DNA of 64,000 nt. Origin: Prorocentrum cordatum. Taxonomy: Eukaryota. Below are positions 8,965-32,984 of this stretch, one piece after another. The number at the start of each line of letters is the position of its first letter. Within the stretch, counting starts at the first letter, position 1. Location: positions 1 through 64,000 of the forward strand of contig CAUYUJ010000015.1 in the NCBI GenBank assembly GCA_963575745.1, written 5' to 3'. The notes under the pieces are model-generated. The model saw nothing but the letters and a program-made list of their open reading frames with translations. It was not told where the DNA came from and ran no database searches. Position numbers and translations under genes: made by a program.

Positions 8965-10255
8965 AATAGTGAGTAGTGAGTTAGTGCGTAGTGAGTAGTG
9001 AGTATTGGGTAGTGAGTAGTGGGTAGTGAGTGGCGTTTAGGGAGTAGGGAGTAGGTAGTGAGTAGTGGGTGGTGAATAGTGGGTAGTGTGAACTGATAAG
9101 TGAGTAGTGACTGGCGAGTAGTGAGTAGTGAGTAGTGAGTAGCGAGTAGCGAGTAGTGAGTACTGAGTAGAGAGTAGGGAGTAATGAGTAGTGGGTAGCG
9201 AGTAGTGGGTAGTGAGTAGTGGGTGGCGAGTAGTAATTAGTGAGTAGTGAGTAGTGGGTAGTGCGTAGTGCGTAGTGAGTAGTGAGTAGTGAGTAGTGTG
9301 TAGTGAGTAGTGAGTAGTGCGTAGTGAGTAGTGCGTAGTGCGTAGCTAGTAGTGAGTAGTGAGTAGTGAGTAGTGAGTAGTGAGTACTGAGTAGCACGTA
9401 GTGCGTAGTGAGTAGTGAGTAGGGAGTAGTGATGAATACAGAGTAGTGGGAACTGGCAGTGTGTAGTGAGTAGTGAGTAGCGAGTAGGGAGTAGCGAGTA
9501 GTGAGTAGGGAGAAGCGAGTAGGGCGTAGTGAGTAGTGAGTAGTGAGTAGAGAGTAGTCAGTATTGGGTAGTGGGTAGTGATCAGTGAGTAACGAGCAGG
9601 GAGTAGCGACTAGTGAGTAGTGAGTAGTGAGTAGGGAGTAGGGAGTAGGGAGTAGTGAGCAGTGAGTAGTAAGAAGTGGGTAGCGAATAATGGGTTGTGA
9701 GTAGCGATTGGTGAGTAGTGGGTAGTGGTAAGTGAGTAGTGACTAGTGACGAGGGAGTTGTGACTAGTGACTAGAGACTACGTCGTGACTAATGAGTAGG
9801 GAGTAGTAAGTAGTGAGTAGTGAATAGTGAGTAGCGGGGAGTGAGTAGTGAGTATTGAGTAGCGAGTATGGGAGTAGCGAGTAGTGAGTACTGAGTACTG
9901 TGTAGTCAGTATTGTGTAGGGAGTAGCGAGTAGTGGGTGGTGAGTAGTGATTTGTGGGCAATGCGTAGTTAGTAGTGAGTAGTGGATAGTGGGTAATGAG
10001 TAGTGAGTAGGGAGTAGGGAGTAGGGAGTAGTGAGTAGTGGTTAGTGAGTAGTGAGTATTGAATAGTGGGTAGTGAGAAGTGAGTAGTGAGTAGGGAGGA
10101 GGGAGTAGTGAGTAGGGAGTAGTGAGTAGCGGTTAGTGGGTGGTGGGTAGTGAGTAGTGAGTCGTGAGTAGTGAGTCGTGAGTAGTGAGTAGGGGGTAGT
10201 GAGAAGTGAGTAGCGAAGAGCGAGTAGTCAGTAGTGAGTAATGAGTTGTGAGTAC
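8965..10255. repeat. Heptamer minisatellite (AGTAGTG)n, ~1.3 kb
   Basis: Continuous degenerate agtagtg/agtaggg/agtagcg units. Confidence 0.95.
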
Positions 10256-10329
10256 TCTTTGGGGCTGGGGTTAGTGGTTGGGGGATTATGGTTTTGGGTT
10301 AAGGGTAAGGCCTTAGGGTGGGGGTGGCG

Positions 10330-10610
10330 GGGAGTTCCGGAACGGGGGCGGCGTGCGGGGGGGGTGGGTTCCGGGACCCCCCTTCTTTTTGAAGGGGGGG
10401 AGGGGGGGGGGGTTCCCCGGGGGGGGGGGGGTCCCCGACGACGGATCGGGGAAAGGGGGGGGGGGGGGGGGTCCCCGACGACGGATCGGGGAAGGGGGGG
10501 AGGGGGGGGTCCCCGACGACGGATCGGGGAAGGGGAGGTGGGGGGGGGTCCTACCCCCCCCCCCCTTGGGGAGATCCAGCGGCGCACCCTCCTTCTGAGG
10601 GCGCCCCCCT
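10330..10610. repeat. Poly-G element with three ccccgacgacggatcggggaa units (G-quadruplex-prone)
   Basis: Units near 10433, 10473 and 10511 separated by G runs; each has a cccc..gggg stem. Confidence 0.7.
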
Positions 10611-11445
10611 GACAAAACAAGAATGACGCACCCGAACCGTATGCGGGGTGTGGCTTTACCACCGAGTCCATCCATGACGGACGGGAGTAGTTTGAAAGGG
10701 AATGCTGCCCATGCGAGCGCTGCTTGGGAAACTGATTCGTTGCATGCCCTGTGGGGCCTGCACGAGGCGACGTCGAAGGAAAGGAAACGAGCAGGGGAGA
10801 CGGAAGGACGACGACGAATAGGAGGAGCAGGAGGAGGAGGAGGAGGAGGAGGAGGAGGAGGAGGAGGACGAGGACGATGAATGAGAGGAGGACAGGAGGA
10901 GGAGACAGGGCGTTCATCGATTGGCGTGCGAGGAAACAGAGCTTTCATAGAGGAGGGGGCAAGATGGGCAAGTTTGACAAGGACGAGACAGAGGAGACAG
11001 AGGACGGCGTGGAGGAGATAGAGGGCGGCATGGAAGGCGTAGAGGAATGGCACGCGATCGGTCACGACGAGAGGACTTGTTGTGACATCGCCCATGTCGG
11101 AGCGGCCCTAGCGTGGGGTTTCTTGCGACCCTAAGCCGCTCAGTGCGAGCGCAACAAAATCGAATCCGCGCGCGTGCCCCCGCTGGGGCTCCAGATGCAT
11201 AGAGGAGCACGTGAGGGCGCTGGCAAACTCGCTGGCGGCCTCTCTCGTTGAGCCGCGCAAGAAGCTGGCCAGGCCAAGCTGGTGCGCCAGTGTTTCGGCC
11301 CCCGCCCTGCATCTCTCGGCACGGGTGCTGGAAGCTCACGGGCGGGAGGTCGGCGAGGTCCACGGGGCGGCCCCCGTCCGCAGAGCAAGCCCATGCAGCG
11401 GACCATGCTGAGATCATCCGACGTGGTCGCCCGCATCCGGCACCG

Positions 11446-12720: not shown

Positions 12721-13975
12721 GGTGGTGGTGGTGGTGGTGGTGGTGGTGGTGGGTTGTGGTGGGTTCTGGTGGTGGTGGTGGTGGTTGTGGTGGTGGTGGT
12801 GTGGTGGTTTGTTATGGTGGTGGTGGTTGTGGTGGTGGGTGGAGGTGGTTGTGGTGGTTTGGTGTGGGCGTGGTGGTCGTTTGTGGGGGTAGTGGTGGTG
12901 GTGGTGGTGGTTGTGGTGGTGGTGGTGGTTGTGGTGGTGGGTTGTGGTGGTGGTGGTGGCTTGGTGGTGGTGGTTTGTGGTGGTGGTGATGGTGGGTCGT
13001 GGTGGTGGCGGTGGTTTGTGCAGGTGGTGCTGGTGGTGTGGTGGCGGTGGGCGGTGGTGGTGGTGGTGTGGTGGTTTGTGGTGGTGGTGGGTTGTGTTGC
13101 TGGTATTGGTGGTGGTTGTGGCGGTGGTGGTGGTGGTGGTGGTGTGGTAGACTGGTGGTGGTGGTAATGGTGGTATGTTTTCGTGGTGGTGGTGGTGATG
13201 GTGAGTTGTTGTTGTGGTGGTTGTGGTGGTGTGGTGGTGGAGTGGTGGTGGTTTGTGGTGGTGGTGGTGGGTTGTTGTGGTGGCGGTGGTTAATGGAGGC
13301 GGTGCTGGAGGTGGTGGTGGCGGCGGTGGTGGTGGTGGTGTGGTGGTGGTGGTGGTGGCGGTGGGTTGTGCTGCTGGTAGTGGTGGTGGTTGTGGCGGTG
13401 CTGGTGGTGGTGTGGCAGATTGTGGTGGTGGTGGTGGGTTTCTGTGGTGGTGGTGGTGATGGTGAGTTGTGGTGGTGGTTGTGGTGGTGGTGGCTGTGAT
13501 GGTGGTGGTGGTGGTGTTGTGGTGGTGGGTTGGTGGTGGTGGTGGGTTGAGGCGGTGGTGGTGGTGGTAGTGGTGGTGGTGGTAGTGGTGGTAATCGTCG
13601 CTGCGTCCCCGCCGTCGCCCGCGCGGTGGCGGTGGTTTATGAGGTGGTGCTGGTGGTGGTGGTGGTGGTGGCGTGGTGCTGGTGGTGGTGGTTGTGTGGT
13701 GGTTTGTGGTGGTGGCGGTGGATTGTGCTGGTGGTGGTGGTGGTTGTGGTTGTGGGGTGGTGGTGGGTTGTGCAGATTGTTGGGGTGGTGGTTGTCGTGG
13801 TGGGTTTTTGTGGTGGTGGTGGTGATGGTGAGTTTTGGTGGCGGTGGTGGTTGTGGTGGTGGCGGTGGTGGCTGTGGTGGTGGTGGTTTTGTGGTGGGTT
13901 GGTTGTGGTGGTGGTGGTGGGTTGAGGCGGTGGTGGTGGTGGTGGTGGTAGTAGTGGTGGTGGTAGTGGTGGTAA
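12721..13975. repeat. (GGT)n microsatellite with higher-order duplications
   Basis: Degenerate ggt array; the block gtaatcgtcgctgcgtccccgccgtcgcc repeats at ~13591 and ~13972. Confidence 0.95.
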
Positions 13976-15974
13976 TCGTCGCTGCGTCCCCGCCGTCGCC
14001 GGCGCCAGCGCCGGCCGGCGCCAGCGCCGGCCGCCGCCAGCGCGGGCGCCGGCGCGAGGGGAGGGGGTTGAACTACCCCCTCTCCCCCTCCCTTGGGCTG
14101 CGGGGGGGTTGGACCCCGCCTCCCCCCTCCCTTGGGCTGCCTCTGGTCATCGTCGCTGCGTCCCCGCCGTCGGCGCTGCCAGCGGCCGCCAGCGCCGGCG
14201 CCGGCGCCGAGGGGGGGGGGGCTTGAACCCTCCCCTTGGGAGGAGGGGGGGGGAGGTTCGGGAGGGGGGGTTTGGGGGGGAGGAGTGTCCCCCTGGTTTT
14301 GGTCGACGGCGCCGAGTGTCGGGGGGGGGCCTACGCCCCCGTTCGAAACGCGCCGCCGAATGTTCCCAAGGCAAGCGCCCGTGAAACGCGTTCTCTCTGA
14401 TTTGACTTCAGGAGGCCTCTTGGGGGCCTTTGGCGGCCGTTGGCGGCTCTCCGCGGCTCTCGGCTGCGGAGGTCAACGGTGGCATCACATGTCGTGCTGC
14501 GTGGCACCACGCTGTTGGCCAGGGCGCGCCCGCGCGGGCGATTGTCCTCGCAGCCGCGCCAGCAACTTCGGAACCTGCCCAACGCCGTCGCATCCGCAGG
14601 GCACCTCGCCTTCATCTGCCTGACCACCGCAGAGCTTCATCATCAATCGACGGGTCCTGCGGAAAGCCAGTCCTAACGTTTTCCACCGACTTAGGGCTCC
14701 AAGGGCCCTCCACGGGCCCCGGGACTGTTTGAAAACGAATCAGGGCGAAAAAATTGTTTTGGGGGAAGTCTCCCGATCCAGGATTCGTTTCCCTGAGGAC
14801 CCGTTTGCTTTACCTATGCCAAGAGCTCGCCGTCGCACTCGCGTGGCGCATGTCACAGAGATCCTGGTCGGCAGCCTCCGTGGCCGCCGCGGGGCTGCAT
14901 CGTCGCCGTCGCTGTCGGTCCCGCTGTCGGCGATGCCGCCGCAAGCGCCTTGCCTCCGAGCGCGCGGATCACTGGCAGGAGCCAGCGGCAGGCACCCCCA
15001 TCCAGCGTCATCCGCGCCTCCGTGCCTTGGAGCCCCAAGCGGCGCCAGGCCAGGAGGCCGCTCAGATGCCGTTGCGGCCCCGTCGCCCCCATAATGCCGC
15101 ATGCGGGCGGCAGCACTTGGGCCTTCGGTGGGGCTCCCTATGGGGCCACGAAGCGTGTGAGGGGTGTGCCGAATTGGGTGTGCGGGACGCATGCGGGCGG
15201 CAGCACTGGGGCCTTCGCGGGCGCGCTTGATCGCCACGCAGCGCCTGCCCAGGTGGCCGCGGAGTTGCCCTTGTGCCACCGTCGCCGCCCGGCGCTGCAA
15301 AACCTGACGCTCGACTTCTTTCCTCAATGAGCCCCCCTTCACGAGACTCACGCTCGGCCGATTCCCGTCGGCCTGCAGGCTGCGCGGGGCGGCCCCAACT
15401 CATTCCCACGGCTTGCCAGCTACCCTCAGCAGGCGCAGAGTGTGCCATGCGAGCACTGCAGCCTTTCGCTCCCGTTATGCGCTGTGCATTGCAGGCCGCT
15501 TGGTGGCCCTCCTAGTGATTATCGTCTCCGACATTGTCATGAGTGGCGCGGCGCCAGTCCCTGCCAGCCGCTGGGCAGCCCATCGATCCGACGTCGCCGT
15601 AGGGCAGCACGCCGCCGGCTGCCTCCACGGCTGCCGCTCTGCTGCCTGTCTCGCCATCCCCCGCCACCGGCGCCGGCTCCGATGGGGTAGACGAGGGGGC
15701 GGCTCGTGGACTCCTCTCCGCCCCTCCGCACGAGCGTCAAGGTCGACAACCAGGATTTACTCTTCCCCCTGCGTCAAAACTTTGGATGTGCTACCTCGCG
15801 GTTTCGATGCATGCCTTCGTCTTCCATGCGCCCCAGATCACCGAGGCTGTGGCCTCGCCCACCTGATCCAAGCCAGGCCCGGACGGTCGTCCGCGGAGGT
15901 GGTCGCGCGTTCGTTCCCCTCCGCAGCGTCCAGCTCGTCCGCCGCCAGCGCCGCACGGGCCACGCCGGTGACGT

Positions 15975-17537: not shown

Positions 17538-19087
17538 TTATCCCGGCAAAGCAACCTAACAGCGATGTGTAGAAGCATATCTGAAAGCATTCCCCTTAAG
17601 ATTCAGATGAAAATCCAGTTGTCGAATTCTGCTGTTCTCGCAGTCGTAGTCGCATTCGCGATGACAGTCGCAGCGGCAACGGCAGTCGCAGTCACAGCCT
17701 CAGCCTCAGCCTGCCTCCTCCTCCTCCTCCTCTTTCTCCTGCTCCTCCTCCTCCTCCTCCTCCTCCTCCTCCTCCTCCTCTTCCTCCTGCTCGTCCTCGT
17801 TCTCGTCCTCCTCGTCTTGCTCGTCCTCCTCCTCCTGGTGCTCTCTCCTCCTCCTCCTCCTCCTCCTCCTCCTCCTCCTCCTCCTCCTGGTGGTCCTCGT
17901 TCTCCTCCTCCTGGTGCTCTCCCCCCCCCTCCTCCTCCTCGTCCTCCTCCTCCTCCTCCTCCTCGTCCTCCTCCTCCTCTTCCTCCTCCTCCTCCTCCTC
18001 CTCCTCCTCCTCCTCCTCCTGGTAGTCCTCCCCCTCCTCCTCCTCCTCCTCTCTCTGGTCGTCCTCGTTCTCGTCCTCCTCGTCTTGCTCGTCCTCCTCC
18101 TCCTGGTGTTCTCTCCTCCTCCTCCTCCTCCTCCTCCTCCTCCTCCTCCTCCTCCTGGACCTCGTTCTCCTCCTCCTGGTACTCTCCCCCCCTCCTCCTC
18201 CTCTCGTCCTCCTCCTCTCCTCCTCCTCCTCCTCTCCTCTCTCCTCCTCCTCCTCCTCTCCTCCTGGTACTCCTCCCCCTCCCCTCCTCCTCCTCCTCCT
18301 CCTCTTCCTGGTCATCTCCTCCTCCTCCTGGTCGTCCTCCTCCTCCTGCTCGTCCTCCTCCTCCTCCTGCTCGTCCTTCTTCTCCTGCTCCTCCTGCTCC
18401 TCGTCCTGCTCGTCCTCGTCCTCCTGGTCTTGCTCGTCCTCCTCCTCGTCGTGCTCTTGCCCCTGCTGAAAATGTGGCCCAGGAATGGGAGTTCTGGGAA
18501 GTCGAAGAGCACGAAGTTGCCTACAGTTAGCTACGGGCATTCAAAATGTGCCCGGGAATGGAGTTCTGGGAACTCGAAGAGCACGAAGTGGCCTACAGTT
18601 GGCTCCGGGCATTCAAAATGTGGCCCGGGAATGGAGTTCTGGGAACTCGAAGACCACGAAGTGGCCTACAGTTGGCTCCGGGCATCCAAAATGTGGCCCG
18701 GAATGGAATTCTGGGAACTCGAAGAGCACGAAGTGTGTGACTGTTGCATCCGGCCCTCCAGAATGTGGCCCGGGAATGGAGTTCTGGGAACTCGAAGAGC
18801 ACGAAGTGTGTGACTGTTGCATCCGGTTATTCAAAATGTGGCCCGGGAATGGCGTTCTGGGATCTCGAAGAGCACGAAGTGTGTGACTGTTGCATCCGGG
18901 TATTGAGAATGTGGCCTGGGAATGGAGTTCTGGGAAGTCGAAGAGCACGAAGTGTGTGACTGTTGGTGAAAAACGAGCCCGGCACCTGCCGCCCGGCAAC
19001 TCCCAACACCTGCCCGGACCCCCCTGTGGAGTGATCTGCTGCTCTCTTTTGATCCCACTAGAAACCTATCAGTCTTCGCTGTTAGGT
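17538..19087 (-). mobile_element. Non-autonomous element family 1, copy A: asymmetric subterminal IRs, ~60 bp tandem array, (CCT)n payload
   Basis: acctaacagcga (17554) and tcgctgttaggt (19076) are inverted; shares both ends and the 60 bp array with 58282-59278; the empty-site version of its host repeat is visible at ~19277-19320. Confidence 0.75.
18465..18965. repeat. ~60 bp tandem repeat (aatgtggcccgggaatggagttctgggaactcgaagagcacgaag...), ~8 units
   Basis: Direct reading; the same unit occurs inverted at 58400-58790. Confidence 0.95.
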
Positions 19088-24256: not shown

Positions 24257-24465
24257 ATGGGCGCCCTGGGCAGCTCTTGGGCGCGGGGAGAAGTCGCGGC
24301 GGTGCGTTCGGCCCTTGTCATGCTATTCTTCTTGCTCGTCCGATGCTGCGGGGCGGCTACTGTTGGCTGAGGCGAATCCCCTTCCTGCGCGTCCGCGGGC
24401 GCGTCCGCGGCGCAGGCTTTCGCGATTCGGGATTCGCCTGGCCGCCCCGCATTCGGGGATGCGTT
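24257..24465 (+). repeat. Split direct repeat A1
   Basis: atgggcgccctgggcagctc...gcattcggggatgcgtt, near-identical to 32547-32761. Confidence 0.95.
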
Positions 24466-24919
24466 TTCGGGGCAACAGGAAAGAAAGGTCTAGCTCCCCG
24501 CGCTCGGGAGTTGGGCGCGGGTCGCACGCCGCGCGCGCACGGGCCTCCATGCCGCGACGCGCCGTTCGCAGACGCGCCGCGTGCCTTGCTGCCTTGGCTG
24601 ATTGATTCCGCGCGCGCGCGCTGGCGGCCCTCTCGGCGTCGCTCCTCCTCCTTCTCCCGCGCAGGTTCCGATTCCCCCTCTTCCTCCCCGCGCGCGCGCT
24701 GCGCCTCCGCTGTTCGCAGGTTCCCCCCTCCTCCTCCCCCCCCCGCCGCAGGTGATGATTCCCTCGTCGTTTTGCCGGGCTCGAAAGGTCAGGATTTCCT
24801 GCGCAGGTGATGATTCCCTCGTCGTTTGCCGGGCTCGAAAAGTCAGGATTCTCTCCTATGTCTTTGTCGCGGCGCACGAGGTGCGCGTGGGCCTTGCCGT
24901 CGCGCGTCGCGTCGGCAGG

Positions 24920-25360
24920 AATATGCCTGCGAATGTGGCAGTCTGCCTGCGTGTGTGTGTGTGTGTGCTGCATGCCGCCCCCCCCCCCCTCCCCAGTCTG
25001 CAGCATGCCTGCGACGGGCCGTATGCCGGACTTTCCCCATGGCGCAGTATGCCTGCGAATGTGGCAATATACCTGCGTGTGCGTGCCGTATGCCGGCCCC
25101 CTAGTCTGCAGTATGCCTGCGACGTGCCGTATGCCGGCCCCTCCCCAATGCGCAGTCTGCCTGCGAATGCGGCGAGATGCCTGCGCGTGCGCGCCGTATG
25201 CCGGCCCCCCCCCCAGTCTGCAGTATGCCTGCGACTTGCCGTATGCCGGCCCTTCCCCATGGCGCAGTATGCTTGCGAATGCGGCAATATGCTTGCGTAT
25301 GCGCGCCGTATGCCGGCCCCCAATCTGCAGCATGCCTGCGAAGTGCCGTATGCTGGCTCT
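24920..25360. repeat. Internal ~110 bp higher-order tandem repeat (gtatgccggccc / cagtatgcctgcga subunits)
   Basis: cgtatgccggc..ccccatggcgcag recurs at ~25020, 25128 and 25240, with a partial unit at 25347. Confidence 0.85.
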
Positions 25361-25426
25361 TGCCAGCGCGCGCGAGGGAAGCCGATTAGCTCGTGCGCGA
25401 CGCGCCCCAACGCGTGCCAAGCAACC

Positions 25427-27205
25427 ATGGCGCTGCCTCGCGAGAAAATCGTCGAGTTGATTGGCGGTTTGCCTGCTGGCGCTTTCGGCACCGACAGGAC
25501 CGCCATCAGGGCTCGCGGGCGAAATCCCGCGCGGGGTCTCCCTGCCTACGTTGTGTGCAAGGCCGATTGGGTCCTCTCCGTCGCCGAGGCCAACGCGGTG
25601 GACGGGGAAGAGGCACCGCTGTTCCTGTGCACCGCGGTCGCGCGCCTCATGGCCGAAGCGGTCGGGGCGGTCCGCCCGATTGACTACTCGGACGCATCCA
25701 TGCGCGAGATGTCGACTGCGGCCCTCAAGCCGGGCGCGAAGCCGTTCGCGGAAAACAGGCCCGCGAAGTGGCGCGATTTCGCCATCAAGCCGTGCCGCGT
25801 CAATATGGCGTTGCGGGCGCAGTCGAAGGCGTGCTCGACCTTCGGGCCACAGGCCCCCGCCCCGACCGCGCGCGCGGGCGCGGGTCGGCGCGCGACGTGG
25901 CGCCAGGGCGGGCAATCGGCCCCGGCGGAGGCGCCCGCCATGCCCACGGAGGAAACGGCTCGCATCGCGGCAGCCATGGAAGATTACGTAAGGGCCAGCA
26001 AGGATTTGCTGGAAGACAAGAAAGAGAAGCCCTTGGCGTTCGCCATGGAGGAGCAGCGTGTTCCGCACGCGCGGGGGCCGCCGAGGAAAGGGGGGCGCGC
26101 TTCCGCAGGACCGCGCGCGCGAGGTCTGGCTCGGAAACTTCCCCCGCGAAGGGTTGCCGACGGAAGAGTCGATGCGCAAGTTCGCGTCTGCGGGTCGAAC
26201 GGCCCAGAAGAATGGCCGCTCGTATATCGGGAGCGCCGAGGGCGAGAGCCTGCAGGCGCCCTGGCTTGGCGCCGCGCGTCGCGGCCGATCCCCGCTCCGA
26301 TGTCTCCGTTCCACGCGCAGGACCGCTGCAAGCTCCAATGGGCGCGGGCGCCGAGGCTGGATTCGGCACCAGCGGGGCCAGGCTCGTGGCGCGATCGCGC
26401 GTCGGCCATCACCGCGGCTAACCGCGCGGGGGCATCCCTGGACCGAATGGATTTTCTCGGTTACGCGCGCTTCCAGGCCGCGCGCGCAGCGGCGGGGCGC
26501 GAGCGCCCGCGCGGGCCCAGTCGCGCGAGGCCCACGTGATGGAGTGGGGGCTTCGCTGCATATTGTCCAAGGTGTTTGATTCCGTCGTGCGGCTGGGATT
26601 CATGTATCAGCTCGCGCGCGTGAGTGAAGAGCACGGGGGCGTCAAGGCTAGGCGCGCAGCGGCTGGGCCGCTGCCCGAAGCTGCGCGGGCGGGGCCGCGC
26701 CGCGTGCAGGTATCATATGCGTACGATTTGCTGCTCCGCCAGAAGGTGGCGAAAGATCTGGAGCACGGCGATGAAGCCTCGACGGCCGCGTTCACCGTGT
26801 TGTCGTGGGACATCCTGCGCGCCGCCAAGGTGCGAAGCGATTCGGGCGGGGCCGCGCGGGCAACGCGCATTGGGCTGCCCGCCCCAGGCGAGAGTCGAGC
26901 AGTCGGACCGCCAGGCGTCGATCGCCAAGGGCGGGGGCAAGAAGGGCGGCAGCGACCGGCGCGACCAGGCGCGCCCGCGCGCGAGCGCCCCGCGGACGCG
27001 CGCGCGCGTCACGACGCGCGAGGCGACGAGGCCTGGGCCAAGGGTCCCGAGGAGCCCCGTTCTTCGGCGTTTGCGCAGCCCGCGCCGTGACGCATCTGGC
27101 ACAGCCGGCAACAAAGGGAACGGCAAGCCTGGCAAAGGAGGGGCTTCCAAGGACGCGGGGAGCTCGTGGAACAGGCCCGAGAGGGCCGATGCCTGGCGGT
27201 GGTGA
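25427..27205 (+). CDS. Gag-like ORF1 of the YR retroelement, spliced
   Basis: ATG at 25427; introns 25853-25906, 26256-26320, 26477-26529, 26647-26709 and 26830-26887 (plus one near 26050-26108) join the frames; YAYDLLLRQKVA resembles DIRS gag; basic G/K-rich tail. Confidence 0.7.
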
Positions 27206-27390
27206 CGCCAGAGCGCTGGCGCTTTGCATACTAATTATTCGCTCGCCCAAGGCGCGACCCGCGAGCGCGCCCGCGTGATTGTCGCGCGACGAGCCGCGTA
27301 GGCGACGGGGCTCTCCCACTGCGCTCTGCCGACAGCGGTGAGAGCGCAGCGTGGCGTGGGCCGTCGCCCGAGGGACAGGAGGCGCCGCGA

Positions 27391-30200
27391 TTGCGCCGCG
27401 GCCAGGACTGCCCCGCCCGCGCGCGCGCAGCGCAGGGCGCGAATGCCGATTCCGACAACGATGTCGGGGGCGGGGGCGGCGATCTGTGCCCCCAGCAAAT
27501 TCACGATGCCGGCTGCGCTTTTGATGAGGCCCGCAACCATCATCCGCCGAAGGCGCATCGAAACACCGCCGCGTTGCCGCGCGCGGTCGGGTCAGAGCCG
27601 CCGTGGAAGCACTGCTTGTCGACGAAGGCAGGAGGGCGGGCATGGGCCCCCTCTGCCATGTGGCCTGGGCGGCGCATCTGCCGCGGGTCAGCGAAATGGC
27701 GCCGCTCGCCGGGGCTGCGCGCGACGCGGCGGTGGCAGCGAGCCAGACGGCCGATCAGCTCTTGCATCAGAAGCGCGAGGCGGCCCTGCAGTTCTGGCAG
27801 GAGCGCAAACGTGTGACGGCTCCAGCATGGAAGGCGCCACCCAGCATGCCCGCATCGCGCGCCGAGTTCAGCCGGGGAGCGCGCTTGCGGGGAGGCGCGC
27901 TACGCGAGATTACCATGGCACGTGCGTTCCGTTCTTGGGCCTGACAAGAATTTGTTGCTCTTGGCCGAGATGATGCAAGCCGCTGGGGTGGCCCGCGACG
28001 CGGCGCGGGCACGCGCCGGCGGAGCGCGGCCTCGTGCGCGAGGCGCCCGACATTAATTTGGCGCGCGATTTGGAAGAAGGGTTCCAGCTTGTCGGGGTCC
28101 TGCCGCGTTCGGGCATGAACGCGGACGTGGCCCCGAAGGAGACCGCGTGCCCGTCCGAGCTGCGCGGCCGGGCGGACGCTTTGAACGCCGCCACTCTCGA
28201 GCGCGCGTCTCGGGACCTGGGGGCCGACGCGGAAGTCACCCAGATATTGCATCAGAAAGCATATGAGGAGGCGCGCGCGCGCGTGCGCCCCGCGTGCTGG
28301 AGTGGGCGGCCTGCCCGGGTCGCGGCGCCCGCGCGCATGCAGGTAGCCGCGGGTCAGGCGGCATGGGTGCGTCTGTCTGACTTGCCGCGAGGGGCGATAT
28401 TGAACCCGCGTTTCCCCGTCGACGAGGGATGGCGATGGAAGGAATCGGGCTGAGCGCGCAAGGAAAAACGCATTCTCCGCGGCGCGCAGTCTCCCCGTGC
28501 CCTGCCCCGGGGGTCGGTGCGCTTAGGTTCGCGCGATTGACGACTTTACTGCTACGGGAGTGATTGACTGCGCCGCGGCAGCCGAAAGGTGCAGGTGGGC
28601 CCTGGCGCGCGCGGCCCGCCCTCACCCCTCCCCTTGTGTTGCCGCGGCCGCGCGCAGGGCCGATTCTCTCGACGCTCTGGTAGAGCTGGCGCGGATCGCG
28701 GCCGCGGCCGGCACGCCGGCGTTGAGCAAGGAAGATTTCGTCGGGGCTTAGAAGACGCTGCCTGTGCGAGGCGCCGACCTCCCGCTGGCCCTCACGGCTT
28801 GGGCCAAGGGGGCCAGCGAAGGCTACTGCTTGCAGCTCCTGAGCTGCCCGTTCAGCGCCGTGGGGAGCGGGTGCGCCTGGGGCCGCGTTGGCGCGGCGCT
28901 CCAGGCACGGGGCGCGACCGCCGCGGCGTCACAGCGCACGCCCCCCCCGCGCGGCAGGCGATCCTTGCCAAGTTATTCTGGCTTGCGTCGGGGCGGTTTG
29001 TGGACGACCTGTTCCGGGCCGACGCCGACAGAGGGCCTGGCGCGGGCGGCCCCCGCGACGCCGCCGAGGTGTTGAGAGCGGTCGTCGAAGATCTGTTAGG
29101 CTGGCGCCTCGATGCCGGCAATCGCGTCGTTGCCGAGCCGAGGGCAAATGTGCTCGGCGTCGACGCGGAAGTGCGCGGTTCGGGCGAGGAGCTATCGCTC
29201 GTGTTCGCGATCGGTACTGACAAGCGTGATAAGTGGAGCCAGGGGATCGAGGGGGTGCTGGCGGCAAGGCGAATGTCGCCGGCGGCCGCCTCCAAACTCG
29301 CCGGCAGATTGGGATGGGGGTCCAGCGCGGTGTTCGGCAGAGGCGCGCGATGAGTCGCGCGCGCAGGCAGCGTGCGCGAGCGGGGGCGACGGCAGGCGCC
29401 CGAGTATACCTGGCACCGCTGTTCTGGCATGCGCAACCGCGGGGGTGGGCGCTGAATTCTCGGCTCCGAAGAGCACTGGAGTGGTGGCTGCGCTTCCTCC
29501 GAAGCGCGCCAGAACGGGCGGTGCCCCTGCGAGTGGGCCCATGCCGTCCCCGCTACCTTGTGTATTCCGACGCGACGGGTGGTGGCAGGCGACGTATGCG
29601 CGAGCCCACGGCGCCGGCCCCGCCCGGACTGCGCCGCCACCGCAGGCTCGCGTGGGTCATCATCGGACCCGATCGTAAGCAGTATGCGGCGGCCGATGTG
29701 CCCGGTCCGATCAAGCGGTGGGCGCGGCACCGCAGGACGCAGGCGGGAACGCCCCACCGACCGCGCGCAACGCGGCACGCGGCCCCCCGTGCGCAGGTCG
29801 CGACTTGGGAGCTCGTCGCGGCAGTATGCGCCTTGCATCATTTGCTCTCGGAGTTGCGCGACGCCGAGATATGGATGTTTGTGGATTCGAAGGCGTGGCC
29901 AAGCGCGGACCGTCGGGCCGCGCGCGCAATGCCCGTCGGATGCGGCAGGCCGCGCTCGGTGCACTCTTGCGCGGCACCTCGCGCCAGCCAGATTATAACG
30001 CGCTGTTTGCCGACATCTGGTTCGCGGCGGCTACCGCGCGGTGCCTCCTGAGCGCATGGTACGTGCCATCGGCGCTCAACGTGGCGGACGCCCCCACGCG
30101 ACCCGCTAAGAAAGCGGCCGAGATAGCGGCCATGCACCGCGAGGGCATCGCCCGGGTGGCGTGGCCATGGCCCCGCGCGGCGCCCTGGGACTCACGCTAG
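27391..30200 (+). pseudogene. DIRS-type reverse transcriptase-RNase H with 10 mapped introns and 2 premature stops; start approximate
   Basis: Spliced product: DLEEGFQLVG, EE|VAAG, RK|VRAIDDF, DFVGA*KTLP, CPFSAVGS, RFVDDLF (~28997), KLAGRLGW, YSDATGG, WELVAA, FVDSK|AALGAL, VPSALNVADAPTR; stops at 28451 and 28749. Confidence 0.9.
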
Positions 30201-30303
30201 CAAGGGCATCTGATGGCATGTGAAACGGGAAAAGGGGCACGAGTGCCGACGCGGCGGGCACGTGGCGACCGCGGCGCGCCGTGAGCGAAGATCCGCAAGC
30301 GGG

Positions 30304-32517
30304 ATGCTCGCGTGTCTGTCGTACGCATCGCGATGGGCGCCCGCAAATGTTGCGGACCCGGTAGGCGCAGTTGCTTTGCAATGTCTGGCATCCAAGCTCG
30401 CGGCCGAGGGCGCGACGCCCCCCTCCGACATTTCCGAGTTCTCGGCGGGGGAGCCGAGGGAAATGTTCCCATGCCTCCGTGAGTGTTCGGTATGCTTTAC
30501 CTGGGCACTTGTCGCGCGTGCACGGGGAATGGTCCATGATAAAGCTTAAGCGACCGCGGGAGAACGCGGCGGAAGCGTTATCCCAGGTTGCGCGCGCAGC
30601 GCCACCTTACCCACCGAGGTAGGGGAGCGCCCGGCCGCCGCGCGGGGCCCGCGGTTGTAAAGGCGGCGGAAGTAATAATCGAGGAGGCCGCCAAGCGCCC
30701 GGCACCGGCTCCGGGCTTGCGGGCGACGCGCCGGCCTGGCGCGGCATTGACCCCTCAATATGCTCTTGCGTTACTGTCGGCGGCGCGGCAGGCACAGCAG
30801 GCACCGCGTCACGGCGCCGCGGGCCCCGTGCGCCGCGTTCGGCGCAGAGGTGCCAGTGCCGTCGCTACTGGCAGAGGCGACCCGCCAGTTGACGAAGCTC
30901 CAAACGCCGCCCGTAATACTCGAATGCGAAAGCGGGAATATGCACGGGGTGCGCGCAAGATTTGTCATCCGCGCGCGATGGTTGCCAGGCACACCTCGTC
31001 GGCGTGCCGAAGAGTTGCGGCTGTCAGGAACAGCGCTGGAGCGCATGCGCCGCATCCAGATGGCCGCGCTGTGGAGAGAGTTCCACGCGTGGAAGCTCTC
31101 GGCGTATCCGTATGCCTCAGCGATTGAATTATACGGCCAAGCGTGCGAATCGGCCAGGGCCTCACCCTGGCCGCCGCGCGCAATCACAAGGGACGTGATG
31201 GTGGCGCTCTGCCGCCGCCCGGGTACTCTGTCACATTATTTGCAAGGCATACGATTTGTGCTGAATTTGCTCCGCGCAGACACGGGGGCCCTGGCGGATC
31301 CGCGGACCCTGGTGTTCGGCGCCCGGAAGGTGTGGCCACCGCGCGCGCCGCCCAGAAGCTCCGTGAGTCCGTCGGAAGGCGGAACCGCCTGGCGCGCAAA
31401 GGTTTCGTGCGCGCGCCACAGCGGACAACGTCCGCGCGATGGCAGATTGGTTGCGCGAGGCACGGCCGCGCGCCCATCGGGCGGCGGGCCGCGCGCGCCG
31501 ACCGGCGTGCCCTGCGGTCGGCAGATTGAGCGCGGCGACATGGCCGACGCATTCGTCATCTGCTGGCAGTTTTGCTTGCGCTTCGGCTCCGAAGTGGTGG
31601 GGCTGAATGCGCCGGCACATAGCGTGATTTCGCGCCACGAGGACGAAGGGAAGCACCAGGTGCAGGTGCCATTCCGCCGCCGCAAAGGCAAGGTGGCGCC
31701 AGACCCGGCGGGCCGCTCGCGCGCGCGCGCGCGCCACGGGGTCGCGCCAGGGGCCCGCTTCGCGAAGGTCTGGAGGGTATGTGTGTGCCAGCTTCAGGAC
31801 AAACGACTGCGCGCCCTATGCATTATTAGGCGCCAGGTTCGCCCCGGCGAACAGCTCCTGCCTGGCGTCACCTACGTGGACGGGCTGGCTTGCGTCAAGC
31901 TCGCCGCTGCCCACCTGGGGCTCCATCGCGCACTGGAGTGGGGGGCGCATTGCTTTCGGCGCGGCCGCGCCGACCAGGCGGGGCCCCATATCCTGTCTGC
32001 CCGAGCTTGCACGCGGCCCGGGCCGCTCGCGCGCGAGGCATTCCGCGCCGGGGGGCAGGCGGCGTTGTTTTTCGAGGGCGGCTGGAAGTCAGTGGCCGCG
32101 CTCGGGCACCGCGTAGGTGGCGGGCGCGGCCTCGCTGCCTGGGCCGCGATGGCACGGCGCGTTATGAAGCGCAGGTACACGGCAGCAAAGACGAAGGCCA
32201 TGGTGCTAGCGGCCGAGGCGGAAATCGCGCACTCTGATTCCGACGAGGCGCCGCCCTGCAGGCATCGGGGTCGGGGCTCCGCGGCGGCGCTTGGCGTGCA
32301 GGACGCGCCGATCGCCGCGGAAGCAATGCAGGGGTCGCCCAGGCCGCGAGGGAAGCAGACCAAGCATCTGCAGTCTGCACGGTGTGCGCGCGGGCGTCGT
32401 TCCGCCGAGCATGCGTCGGGAGACGTCGGCGAGGTTGCTCGGCTCCGCGACGCCGACTCGCGCTCCCACCACCGCCAGGCCTGGGCCCGCGCCTGTCGAC
32501 GGTTGTGCCCTGCGTAA
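30304..32517 (+). CDS. Tyrosine recombinase, spliced; ends approximate
   Basis: Catalytic set: R in LRFGSE (31579), RRRK, CVC..LC, HCFRRG (31948), GGWKS (32083) and Tyr at 32176; normal spacing needs removal of introns 31978-32037 and 32106-32174. Confidence 0.85.
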
Positions 32518-32984
32518 GCGCGGGCCCAGCCTCGACGCGACTTCTCATGGGCGCCCTGGGCAGCTCTTGGGCGCGGGGAGAAGTCGCGGCGGTGCGTTCG
32601 GCCCTTGTCATGCTATTCTTCTTGCTCATCCGATGCTGCGGGACGGCTAGTGCTGGCTGAGGCTGAGGCGAATCCCCCTCCTGCGCGCCCGCGGGCGCGT
32701 CCGCGGCGCAGGCTTTCGCGATTCGGGATTCGCCTGGCCGCCCCGCATTAGGGAATGCGTTGTCCCGCCCACCCGACCCTGCTGCGCGAGCGCGGCGGCG
32801 TCGCGGTGGCTCCTGGGCGCGTCGAGGCTGGGCTGGCCCAGGGCTCGGCGGGGGGGGGGGGCGTCGGCGAGGTTGCTCGGCTCCGCGAAGCCGACTCGCG
32901 CTCCGACCGCCGCCAGGCCTGGGCCCGCGCCTGTCGACGGTTGTGCCCTGCGTAAGCGCGGGCCCAGCCTCGGCGCGACTTCTC
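32424..32984 (+). repeat. Right-end repeats B1 (32424-32546), A2 (32547-32761), 100 nt spacer, B2 (32862-32984)
   Basis: B1 and B2 are both 123 nt, cgtcggcgaggttgctc...gcgacttctc, with few substitutions; B1 abuts A2. Confidence 0.95.

Follow-up and report, generated by a model that had tools for sequence, protein, structure and literature searches.

Positions 24257-32984 of a 64-kb stretch of Prorocentrum cordatum DNA (contig CAUYUJ010000015.1 of assembly GCA_963575745.1, positions 1 to 64,000 of the forward strand; this whole stretch is here called the window) hold one copy of a retrotransposon, laid out as A1 - internal - B1 - A2 - spacer - B2. Comparison with related sequences lends good support to its being a member of an intron-rich family of tyrosine-recombinase retrotransposons. 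Its three genes, a gag-like open reading frame (ORF1), a pol gene for reverse transcriptase (RT) and putative RNase H, and a putative tyrosine-recombinase gene, are likely to contain at least 21 spliceosomal-type introns, or about 24 with those predicted in the upstream part of the recombinase gene. Retrotransposition is expected to purge introns, and intron absence is a hallmark of retrocopies. We read the element, with a probability that we put at roughly 0.6, as a decayed copy of a DIRS-order retrotransposon family in which introns are inherited, unspliced sense RNA serving as template while spliced RNA is translated.

Introns in the three genes

A preliminary description of this DNA, made from the letters alone, had claimed 17 inserts in the coding blocks, nine of them not multiples of three, and had quoted four protein motifs that excision would rebuild. 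All 17 begin with GC, GT or GA, end with AG, measure 53-72 nt and have 70-91% G+C; counting gives the same nine of 17, and the four motifs are restored on translating the spliced sequence. The list was right in what it held and incomplete, four more inserts lying at 26051-26108, 31330-31378, 31460-31524 and 31708-31767 (introns 2, 17, 18 and 19 in the numbering used here; all features of the element are on the + strand). Taken together, the 21 introns have 15 GC, 4 GT and 2 GA donors (71/19/10%) and an AG acceptor in 21/21, with G after the acceptor in 20/21 and AG before the donor in 18/21. They are 49-72 nt long (1242 nt in all), 12 of the 21 having lengths that are not multiples of three, their G+C content is 81.6% against 67.5% in 4671 nt of exons, and they occur at a density of about one per 220 nt of coding sequence.

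ORF1 (25427-27205, from an ATG at 25427 to a TGA at 27203-27205) is called gag-like by position only, Pfam having found no family match for it. It consists of seven exons and is open from ATG to stop once six introns are excised. In 7/7 of these exons the third codon position has the highest G+C content (GC3) in the assigned phase, and the introns are without periodicity (0.82/0.82/0.80 at the three positions). The six are intron 1 (25853-25906; 54 nt, GC-AG), intron 2 (58 nt, GA-AG), which joins two gag frames and rests on frame, motif and GC3 phase, intron 3 (26256-26320; 65 nt, GC-AG), intron 4 (26477-26529; 53 nt, GC-AG), intron 5 (26647-26709; 63 nt, GC-AG) and intron 6 (26830-26887; 58 nt, GT-AG).

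The pol gene (27642-30200, with its ATG at 27642 and its stop at 30198-30200) has 11 exons that encode an N-terminal domain, RT and putative RNase H, and is broken by two stops. An uninterrupted pol homologue, P0007, has 659 aa and 52% identity; Met1 of this protein aligns at 27642 and its end at 30188, the pol stop lying three codons past the stretch aligned to its C-terminus. The tyrosine-recombinase gene (30940-32517, stop at 32515-32517) has at least six exons and a C-terminal tail that enters the B1 repeat, and its spliced frame is conserved in three metagenome loci (L001, L002 and L003) and in the homologue P0156.

Both genes can be compared with L002, a 5130-nt metagenome contig about 85% identical to the window that covers pol and recombinase, not gag. 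In the compared region 14 of 15 introns are shared, with a GC or GT donor and an AG acceptor kept in 14/14. Those of pol are intron 7 (27834-27894; 61 nt, GC-AG; GC..AG and 56 nt in L002), where the P0007 alignment breaks; intron 8 (27988-28042; 55 nt, GT-AG; GT..AG and 55 nt in L002); intron 9 (28271-28342; 72 nt, GC-AG; GC..AG and 65 nt in L002), at a 24-residue gap in P0007; intron 10 (28463-28526; 64 nt, GA-AG; GT..AG and 63 nt in L002); intron 12 (28905-28957; 53 nt, GC-AG; GC..AG and 51 nt in L002); and intron 13 (29343-29395; 53 nt, GC-AG; GC..AG and 55 nt in L002). The RNase H part has intron 14 (29589-29645; 57 nt, GC-AG; GC..AG and 64 nt in L002) and intron 15 (29743-29796; 54 nt, GC-AG; GC..AG and 54 nt in L002), at P0007 gaps of 19 and 18 residues, and intron 16 (29893-29948; 56 nt, GC-AG; GC..AG and 57 nt in L002), where the P0007 alignment changes frame. 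Intron 11 (28595-28657; 63 nt, GT-AG) is polymorphic in the family and precisely absent from L002, where it faces 59 gap columns and 4 ambiguous bases. In the recombinase gene, intron 17 (49 nt, GT-AG; GT..AG and 49 nt in L002) and intron 18 (65 nt, GC-AG, followed by A; GC..AG and 54 nt in L002) enclose an exon read in another frame. Intron 19 (60 nt, GC-AG) is in frame here and 55 nt long in L002, where it shifts the unspliced frame; intron 20 (31978-32037; 60 nt, GC-AG) has 58 nt in L002; and intron 21 (32106-32174; 69 nt, GC-AG), right before the codon of the catalytic Tyr, has 70 nt in L002.

Exons and introns differ from L002 in different ways. The length differs in 11 of the 14 shared introns, and none of the 11 differences is a multiple of three. 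Thirteen introns give 556 matches, 180 mismatches and 47 gap columns (75.5% identity), as against 1687 matches, 276 mismatches and 4 gap columns in pol exons (85.9%) and 1133 matches, 194 mismatches and 8 gap columns in recombinase exons (85.4%, a count that includes intron 19), so that gap columns per 100 amount to 6.0 in introns and 0.2-0.6 in exons. With the projected introns removed, L002 has open frames of 747 codons (pol) and 390 codons (recombinase), and both are open only upon that removal. The ratio of nonsynonymous to synonymous divergence (dN/dS) between window and L002 is 0.128 in the spliced pol frame (652 codons, dS 0.50), 0.090 in the RT core and 0.161 in the RNase H part; in the recombinase it is 0.152 up to the catalytic Tyr and 0.594 in the C-terminal tail, and two shifted-frame controls give 1.15-2.43. 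These values show that the spliced reading frames, as predicted here, are under purifying selection.

Further exons of the recombinase gene probably lie upstream, at 30250-30939, in frame-switching blocks with an excess of synonymous differences from L002 (frame f1 at about 30250-30460, f2 at about 30520-30600, f0 at about 30640-30760, then f1), and a weak alignment places P0156 residues 70-112 on 30385-30513 (E 0.043). The gene probably starts near 30250-30300, and so would gain an N-terminal domain and some three further introns, whose borders are ambiguous, many candidates being equally good and none being found in the first zone.

The inserts could be other than introns, either translated low-complexity linkers accompanied by frameshifts in a dead pseudogene or segments bypassed in translation. 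Nine of the 21 are in frame, and GC-rich DNA yields long chance frames, such as an antisense ORF of 758 aa (24323-26599, - strand) opposite the leader and gag, which is treated as a composition artefact and makes open frames alone weak evidence at about 70% G+C, where long frames arise easily. We find this explanation scarcely credible: length changes that are not multiples of three are confined to the inserts, the L002 frames open only after excision, homologues have gaps at the inserts, the border dinucleotides are kept in all shared introns, and the inserts are without codon periodicity.

The homologues bear on this directly. P0004 is an ORF called on a copy resembling L002, in which three introns (10, 12 and 13) are in frame and read through. 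When 11 homologues, taken from among the longer of the 150 P0004 matches listed, were aligned, 11/11 had gaps at all three read-through segments, two of which (introns 12 and 13) are exact 17-column gaps in every one. At every one of the 10 introns of pol, the P0007 alignment has either a gap or a break between high-scoring segment pairs. Relatives of the recombinase ORF are two ORF calls among 8000 scored candidates, P0001 (91% identical) and P0002 (47%), and P0156, an uninterrupted protein of 533 aa that is 37% identical to P0002. It has an exact gap at intron 19, a 20-residue gap at intron 20 and a 23-residue gap at intron 21, reads through the predicted intron 21 junction, and has no insert at 17 or 18. 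The preliminary view that the inserts are not conserved protein is thus borne out by the 11 pol homologues and by P0156. Uninterrupted, full-length homologues comprise P0007 and P0009-P0011 for pol (37-52% identity) and P0156 for the recombinase, on metagenome-type contigs of 2.7-8.9 kb from JGI, ENA, NCBI or Logan. A search of viral contigs with P0007 returned nothing, and one of genome contigs gave a single weak match, at 6001-6186 of L004, a contig of a bacterial metagenome-assembled genome (58 residues at 34% identity; E 7e-5, relative to the candidates), probably to an unrelated bacterial reverse transcriptase or by chance.

Copies of the family and the inheritance of introns

The ends of the element are marked by split direct repeats, which is the Ngaro/PAT-type layout of tyrosine-recombinase (DIRS-order) retrotransposons. 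The left terminal repeat A1 (24257-24468, with the left flank reaching up to 24256) pairs with A2 (32547-32764) at 93% identity by blastn, or 203/212 with 6 gap positions by alignment, and B1 (32418-32546) is identical at 123/129 positions to the right terminal repeat B2 (32856-32984), which a spacer (32765-32855) separates from A2. The B1|A2 junction equals the element ends joined and is kept in L002 and L003. Repeat analysis found no inverted terminal repeats of the element, no target-site duplication is visible at the 24257 and 32984 ends, and self-blastn found no second copy of the element within the window.

A scan of metagenome contigs confirmed three loci, L001-L003, from 163 pattern matches. 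L003 (1848 nt) contains the recombinase end, B1-A2-B2 and a flank, and matches L002 at 99.5% identity over 1417 nt. Its last bases are those of the window element, up to 32984, after which it diverges fully into a completely different flank, the only second site compared. Its B1 and B2 are identical at 127/127 aligned bases (3 gap positions), each being 7-11% off the B1 and B2 of the window. The repeats are hence homogenised within a lineage while differing between lineages, a concerted evolution that is expected if both are regenerated from one template in each cycle, and they indicate that the L003 subfamily inserted recently while carrying introns. The third locus, L001 (1429 nt), is a far more distant relative, with a recombinase 45% identical in protein (169/377 aa). 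It carries all five recombinase introns at the same codon positions, with GT or GA donors and AG acceptors in 5/5: GT..AG of 62 nt for intron 17, GA..AG of 55 nt for intron 18, GTGAG..AG of 66 nt for intron 19, and GT..AG of 54 and 58 nt for introns 20 and 21. Whether dispersed copies with different flanks keep the introns had been posed as a test, and the same positions recur in L002, L003 and L001, L003 having another flank and B1 equal to B2; these alignments show that the introns belong to the family rather than to the locus and have been inherited through transposition.

The window copy itself is old and dead, as its two in-frame pol stops and the 4-5% divergence of its paired repeats (95-96% identical) tell. 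The stops are a TGA at 28451-28453, where L002 has TGG, and a TAG at 28749-28751 in RT motif A, where L002, P0003, P0004 and P0005 have Tyr. The termini had been described as intact mobile-element ends: the ends at 24257 and 32984 hold, L003 having the same last base, and the copy between them is not intact.

An old copy might have gained its introns after insertion here, through a host or introner process, and the AG|G...AG|G borders do resemble short direct repeats; alternatively, the whole could be a domesticated, intron-bearing host gene cluster. Both seem very unlikely to us. The same introns are found in a copy with another flank and identical terminal repeats, and in a relative at 45% amino-acid identity. 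Comparison of all 21 introns with one another gave only short GC-rich low-complexity matches (the longest 23 nt at 91%, and 17 nt exact), so they are not copies of one inserted, introner-like element. The repeats and the precise ends are conserved among copies, and element parts reach a contig depth of 100-300, against about 10-15 elsewhere, in the public sequencing run X1, contig depth being a rough guide. That L001-L003 might be the orthologous locus of other strains is countered by the different flank of L003. The preliminary description had likewise argued against a domesticated host gene, with which the conserved termini, the one different flank, the repeats evolving in concert and the decay of the window copy agree.

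Contigs of four out of eight listed public runs, X1-X4, which are of DNA or of a kind not on record and some of which are marine metagenomes, were compared with the element; X1 may be the window's own source, in which case its contigs are not independent. Contigs cross introns without a joint at 1-14% divergence: X4 contigs span introns 1 (without a joint), 4 (with 0 gaps) and 5, an X1 contig spans intron 6, and another, 14% diverged and at depth 113, crosses intron 12 without a gap. Not one of the 10 joints listed in X1-X4 equals an intron excision; at two in X4, 29671>29793 and 29867>29942, the stretches passed over measure 121 and 74 nt, overlap introns 15 and 16, and look divergent rather than excised. 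Contigs of X3 nearly identical to the window (0-5 differences, 27764-30060) run through introns 7, 12 and 16; they would be unspliced transcripts only if this run, whose kind is not on record, consisted of RNA.

Introns also vary singly within the family. Intron 11 is absent from L002 and P0004 and present in the window, P0003 and P0005, and the intron 18 site is without an insert in P0002, which reads straight across it, and in P0156. The window, L002/P0004 and P0003/P0005 form a trio without order, the out-of-frame ends of P0003/P0005 contaminating the distance matrix. The absence of intron 11 could reflect a loss by reverse transcription of partly spliced RNA.

Protein functions, RNA pools and genomic surroundings

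The assignment of pol draws on its relatives. HMMER with P0004 retrieved 575 proteins at E<=1e-3, of which 183 reach <=1e-10 and 15 reach <=1e-30, and among 22 long P0004 relatives Pfam matched 10 at E<=0.001, eight of them to RVT_1. The RVT_1 match of P0031 (36.6 bits, over the P0004-aligned region) is the sole one of the eight above the gathering score of 29.6. RNase H-type matches occur in 3/22 relatives, to RT_RNaseH in P0058 (23.2 bits, below the 24.8 cut-off) and to RVT_3 in P0042 (22.0 bits against a cut-off of 21.6) and P0061 (20.4 bits). We take three blocks of pol, recognised by eye from the consensus, to be RT motifs A-C, and a D...E...D pattern conserved in the alignment labelled A2, likewise read by eye, to be that of RNase H. 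In the ESM Atlas, P0004 lies near RVT_1 clusters, one with Dam and RT_RNaseH (score 0.94, TM about 0.5), and P0002 near Phage_integrase and DUF3504 clusters (score 0.96, TM 0.55-0.65), both serving as leads only. The presumed catalytic residues of the recombinase are the Arg in L-R-F-G-S-E, an H-x-x-R, and the Tyr with a Trp that precedes it by eight residues. These candidates (R / H-x-x-R / W / Y) are conserved in the window, L001, L002 and P0156. Pfam scans of window pieces, P0001-P0004 and the 22 relatives gave neither a Dam or other methyltransferase match, such as might follow RNase H, nor a GIY-YIG match; one Atlas structural-neighbour cluster of P0004 has Dam in 26% of its members.

Replication is taken as RNA-mediated on two grounds: no other part of the element is as constrained as the RT core, and the repeats appear to be made anew in each cycle. 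The family could instead move at the DNA level, by Crypton-like excision and integration of a circle, its RT being kept for another step or as a relic. Cryptons are recombinase-only DNA transposons, intron-containing copies of one Crypton subfamily are reported in the available part of PMC13465315, and the B1|A2 junction is exactly the sequence that joined ends would give. Such movement remains quite unlikely in the face of dN/dS values of 0.090 and 0.161 for the RT core and the RNase H part, and of B1 and B2 that agree at 127/127 bases in L003 yet differ by 7-11% between lineages, as regeneration from a template predicts.

No protein can come from the unspliced RNA, yet the introns are inherited; translation and copying would therefore use separate RNA pools, and the proteins would work in trans. 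In the cycle that we propose, reverse transcription would copy a full-length sense RNA with its introns in place, and translation would be possible only for those of the same transcripts that have been spliced completely. The proteins of all three genes (Gag, RT/RNase H, recombinase) would serve the unspliced RNA in trans, each cycle would renew the A and B repeats, and integration by the recombinase would leave no target-site duplication. Where a partly spliced RNA is now and then reverse transcribed, single introns would be lost precisely. The host, probably a GC-rich marine alga with leaky, GC-AG-rich splicing, would supply both RNA pools.

The template may also be a full-length antisense transcript, an alternative that the preliminary description had named too, in which the sense introns would be invisible to the spliceosome, sense RNA existing only as spliced mRNA. 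This would explain the retention of more than 20 introns without inefficient splicing. We hold it to be unlikely: the split direct repeats are asymmetric (one block on the left, three on the right), and the Ngaro/PAT replication model, in the accessible text of PMC6681497, assumes a sense transcript; single-intron losses (intron 11 in L002, intron 18 in P0002) come about more easily from a partly spliced sense template; and the sequence analyses found no positive evidence for an antisense one. Within the preferred reading, with sense RNA in both roles, a stricter version would make the two-RNA life cycle obligate, only spliced RNA being translated and only unspliced RNA being copied, with introns kept by selection rather than merely tolerated. 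Such selection might act for expression, for export, or for passing as a host gene before RNA-based surveillance; we entertain it tentatively, at somewhat less than even odds.

Several points weigh against the reading as a whole. That the inserts are spliced, and that the replication template is most likely unspliced sense RNA, we infer from sequence. Introns 1-6 of gag are predicted from the frame, borders and GC3 phase of this one copy, and the related copies L001-L003 derive from metagenomes, their hosts being unassigned. P0007, P0156 and the other uninterrupted homologues could come from the DNA of intron-free relatives or from transcripts, and intron 11 could equally have been removed by a deletion joining the GCAGG microhomologies on either side of it, or its presence could be a gain. 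Pfam found no RT or integrase domain in 10 window pieces, P0001-P0004 and P0155-P0157, and P0007 and P0010 have sub-threshold RVT_1 matches only (E about 0.006, 16.6-16.7 bits against the cut-off of 29.6). For the recombinase, PDB phmmer and profile searches and a PHROGs search gave nothing, and an AlphaFold2 model of P0156 (from a 7-row alignment) has a pLDDT of 41.5, too poor for use, so that this putative assignment draws on language-model and structure neighbours and on motifs.

Between A1 and gag lies a 5' leader (24469-25426) that holds the direct-repeat families D1, D4 and D7, with a short duplication at about 24754-24850 and some four tandem units of 108-112 nt at 24922-25364 that are 80-92% alike; self-blastn identity between leader units is 80%. 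Some X1 and X2 contigs have joints that leave out portions of the leader (24529>24742, 24662>24762), and its length may vary among copies. G+C content per kilobase ranges over 48-73% in the window and about 66-73% in the element. GC skew is 0.50-0.79 and AT skew falls to -0.80 at window positions 9001-11000 and 13001-14000, probably on account of strand-biased simple or tandem repeats. An ORF at 17606-18520 (- strand) has a weak, sub-threshold AAA_11 helicase match (E 8.7e-4; 19.6 bits, the cut-off being 27) and may be what is left of a helicase gene or part of some other mobile element. Among the 146 longer of 247 ORFs of at least 110 aa outside the element, Pfam gave only 3 sub-threshold matches and no recognisable host gene with which intron style might be compared.

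Relation to known elements and significance

Split direct repeats of the A1..B1-A2-B2 kind are described, in the part of PMC6681497 available, for Ngaro-, PAT- and VIPER-like tyrosine-recombinase retrotransposons. The element resembles Ngaro/PAT-like elements in these repeats, in the predicted gene order gag-like - RT/RNase H - recombinase, in showing no visible target-site duplication, and in a young copy, L003, with identical repeats, as the replication model given in the same source predicts (PMC6681497); it is unlike them in having at least 21 introns across all three genes. Any placing in a subgroup of the DIRS order is tentative. A methyltransferase domain is, we assume, a feature of DIRS1 and PAT, and its lack after RNase H would fit Ngaro better than PAT or DIRS1. 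The word 'intron' is absent from the available portions of three surveys of DIRS-order elements (PMC3266345, PMC3783388, PMC6681497), the first of which, from 2011, records one DIRS1-like sequence in Emiliania huxleyi. We found no report of intron-rich DIRS-order elements in the literature searched; the founding DIRS1, PAT, Ngaro and kangaroo papers and a 2015 review, outside that search, may mention occasional introns, of which the preliminary description also speaks.

DIRS-1 of Dictyostelium discoideum is likewise a tyrosine-recombinase retrotransposon with an RNA intermediate, and as far as the excerpt of PMC7192593 goes, its proteins work in trans and an intron-tagged element yielded unspliced cDNA. 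Unlike the element described here, it has terminal repeats that are inverted, plus an internal complementary region, instead of split direct repeats, its new copies had the marker intron spliced out, and no native introns appear in the same partial account (PMC7192593). Penelope-like elements keep spliceosomal introns through retrotransposition, intron retention being termed 'highly unusual among retroelements' in the available text of PMC8557442. They differ in having their own telomerase-like RT, a GIY-YIG endonuclease and pseudo-LTRs (long terminal repeats), whereas the present element is recombinase-like with split direct repeats; and they usually have one or few introns, often in the 5' UTR (untranslated region), with most Naiad/Chlamys ORFs uninterrupted in what that source covers (PMC8557442), as against a host-like intron density here. 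Cryptons encode a related recombinase, DUF3504/Crypton-type clusters being among the Atlas neighbours of P0002, but have no RT/RNase H and move as DNA, whereas the RT/RNase H of this element is strongly constrained. In retroviruses and LTR retrotransposons, unspliced RNA is the genome and spliced RNA a messenger, gag-pol being translated from the unspliced form and accessory genes or env from spliced ones; here, unlike there, no protein can come from unspliced RNA.

A parallel for the introns themselves is found in E. huxleyi, whose donors are GC in 56-65%, GT in 35-40% and GA in about 4%, in a genome of 65% G+C, and in which reads run through 478/535 inspected introns, according to the accessible part of PMC4028052. 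The donor mix, the invariant AG acceptors and the G+C content of the element resemble these. Pelagophytes have only 14-17% GC-AG introns in the portion available of bioRxiv 10.1101/2024.10.30.620910, and Symbiodinium retrotransposons that carry a DNMT are described as intronless in that of PMC5890265.

The family would thus extend intron retention to a retroelement order other than Penelope-like, with twenty-odd introns kept in every gene through transposition and deep divergence. If the contigs of the P0007 and P0156 type are DNA, intron-free sister lineages exist and introns have been gained or lost within the clade. Intron-rich retroelements may be missed or fragmented by surveys based on ORFs or tblastn, and gene callers may take them for host genes. 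Should the proposed life cycle be true, the family would be a natural system in which genome and messenger RNA differ at more than 20 splice sites, where the competition among splicing, export, and packaging or reverse transcription would be directly measurable; and if template and messenger are indeed two RNAs, such elements could carry introns to new genomic places.

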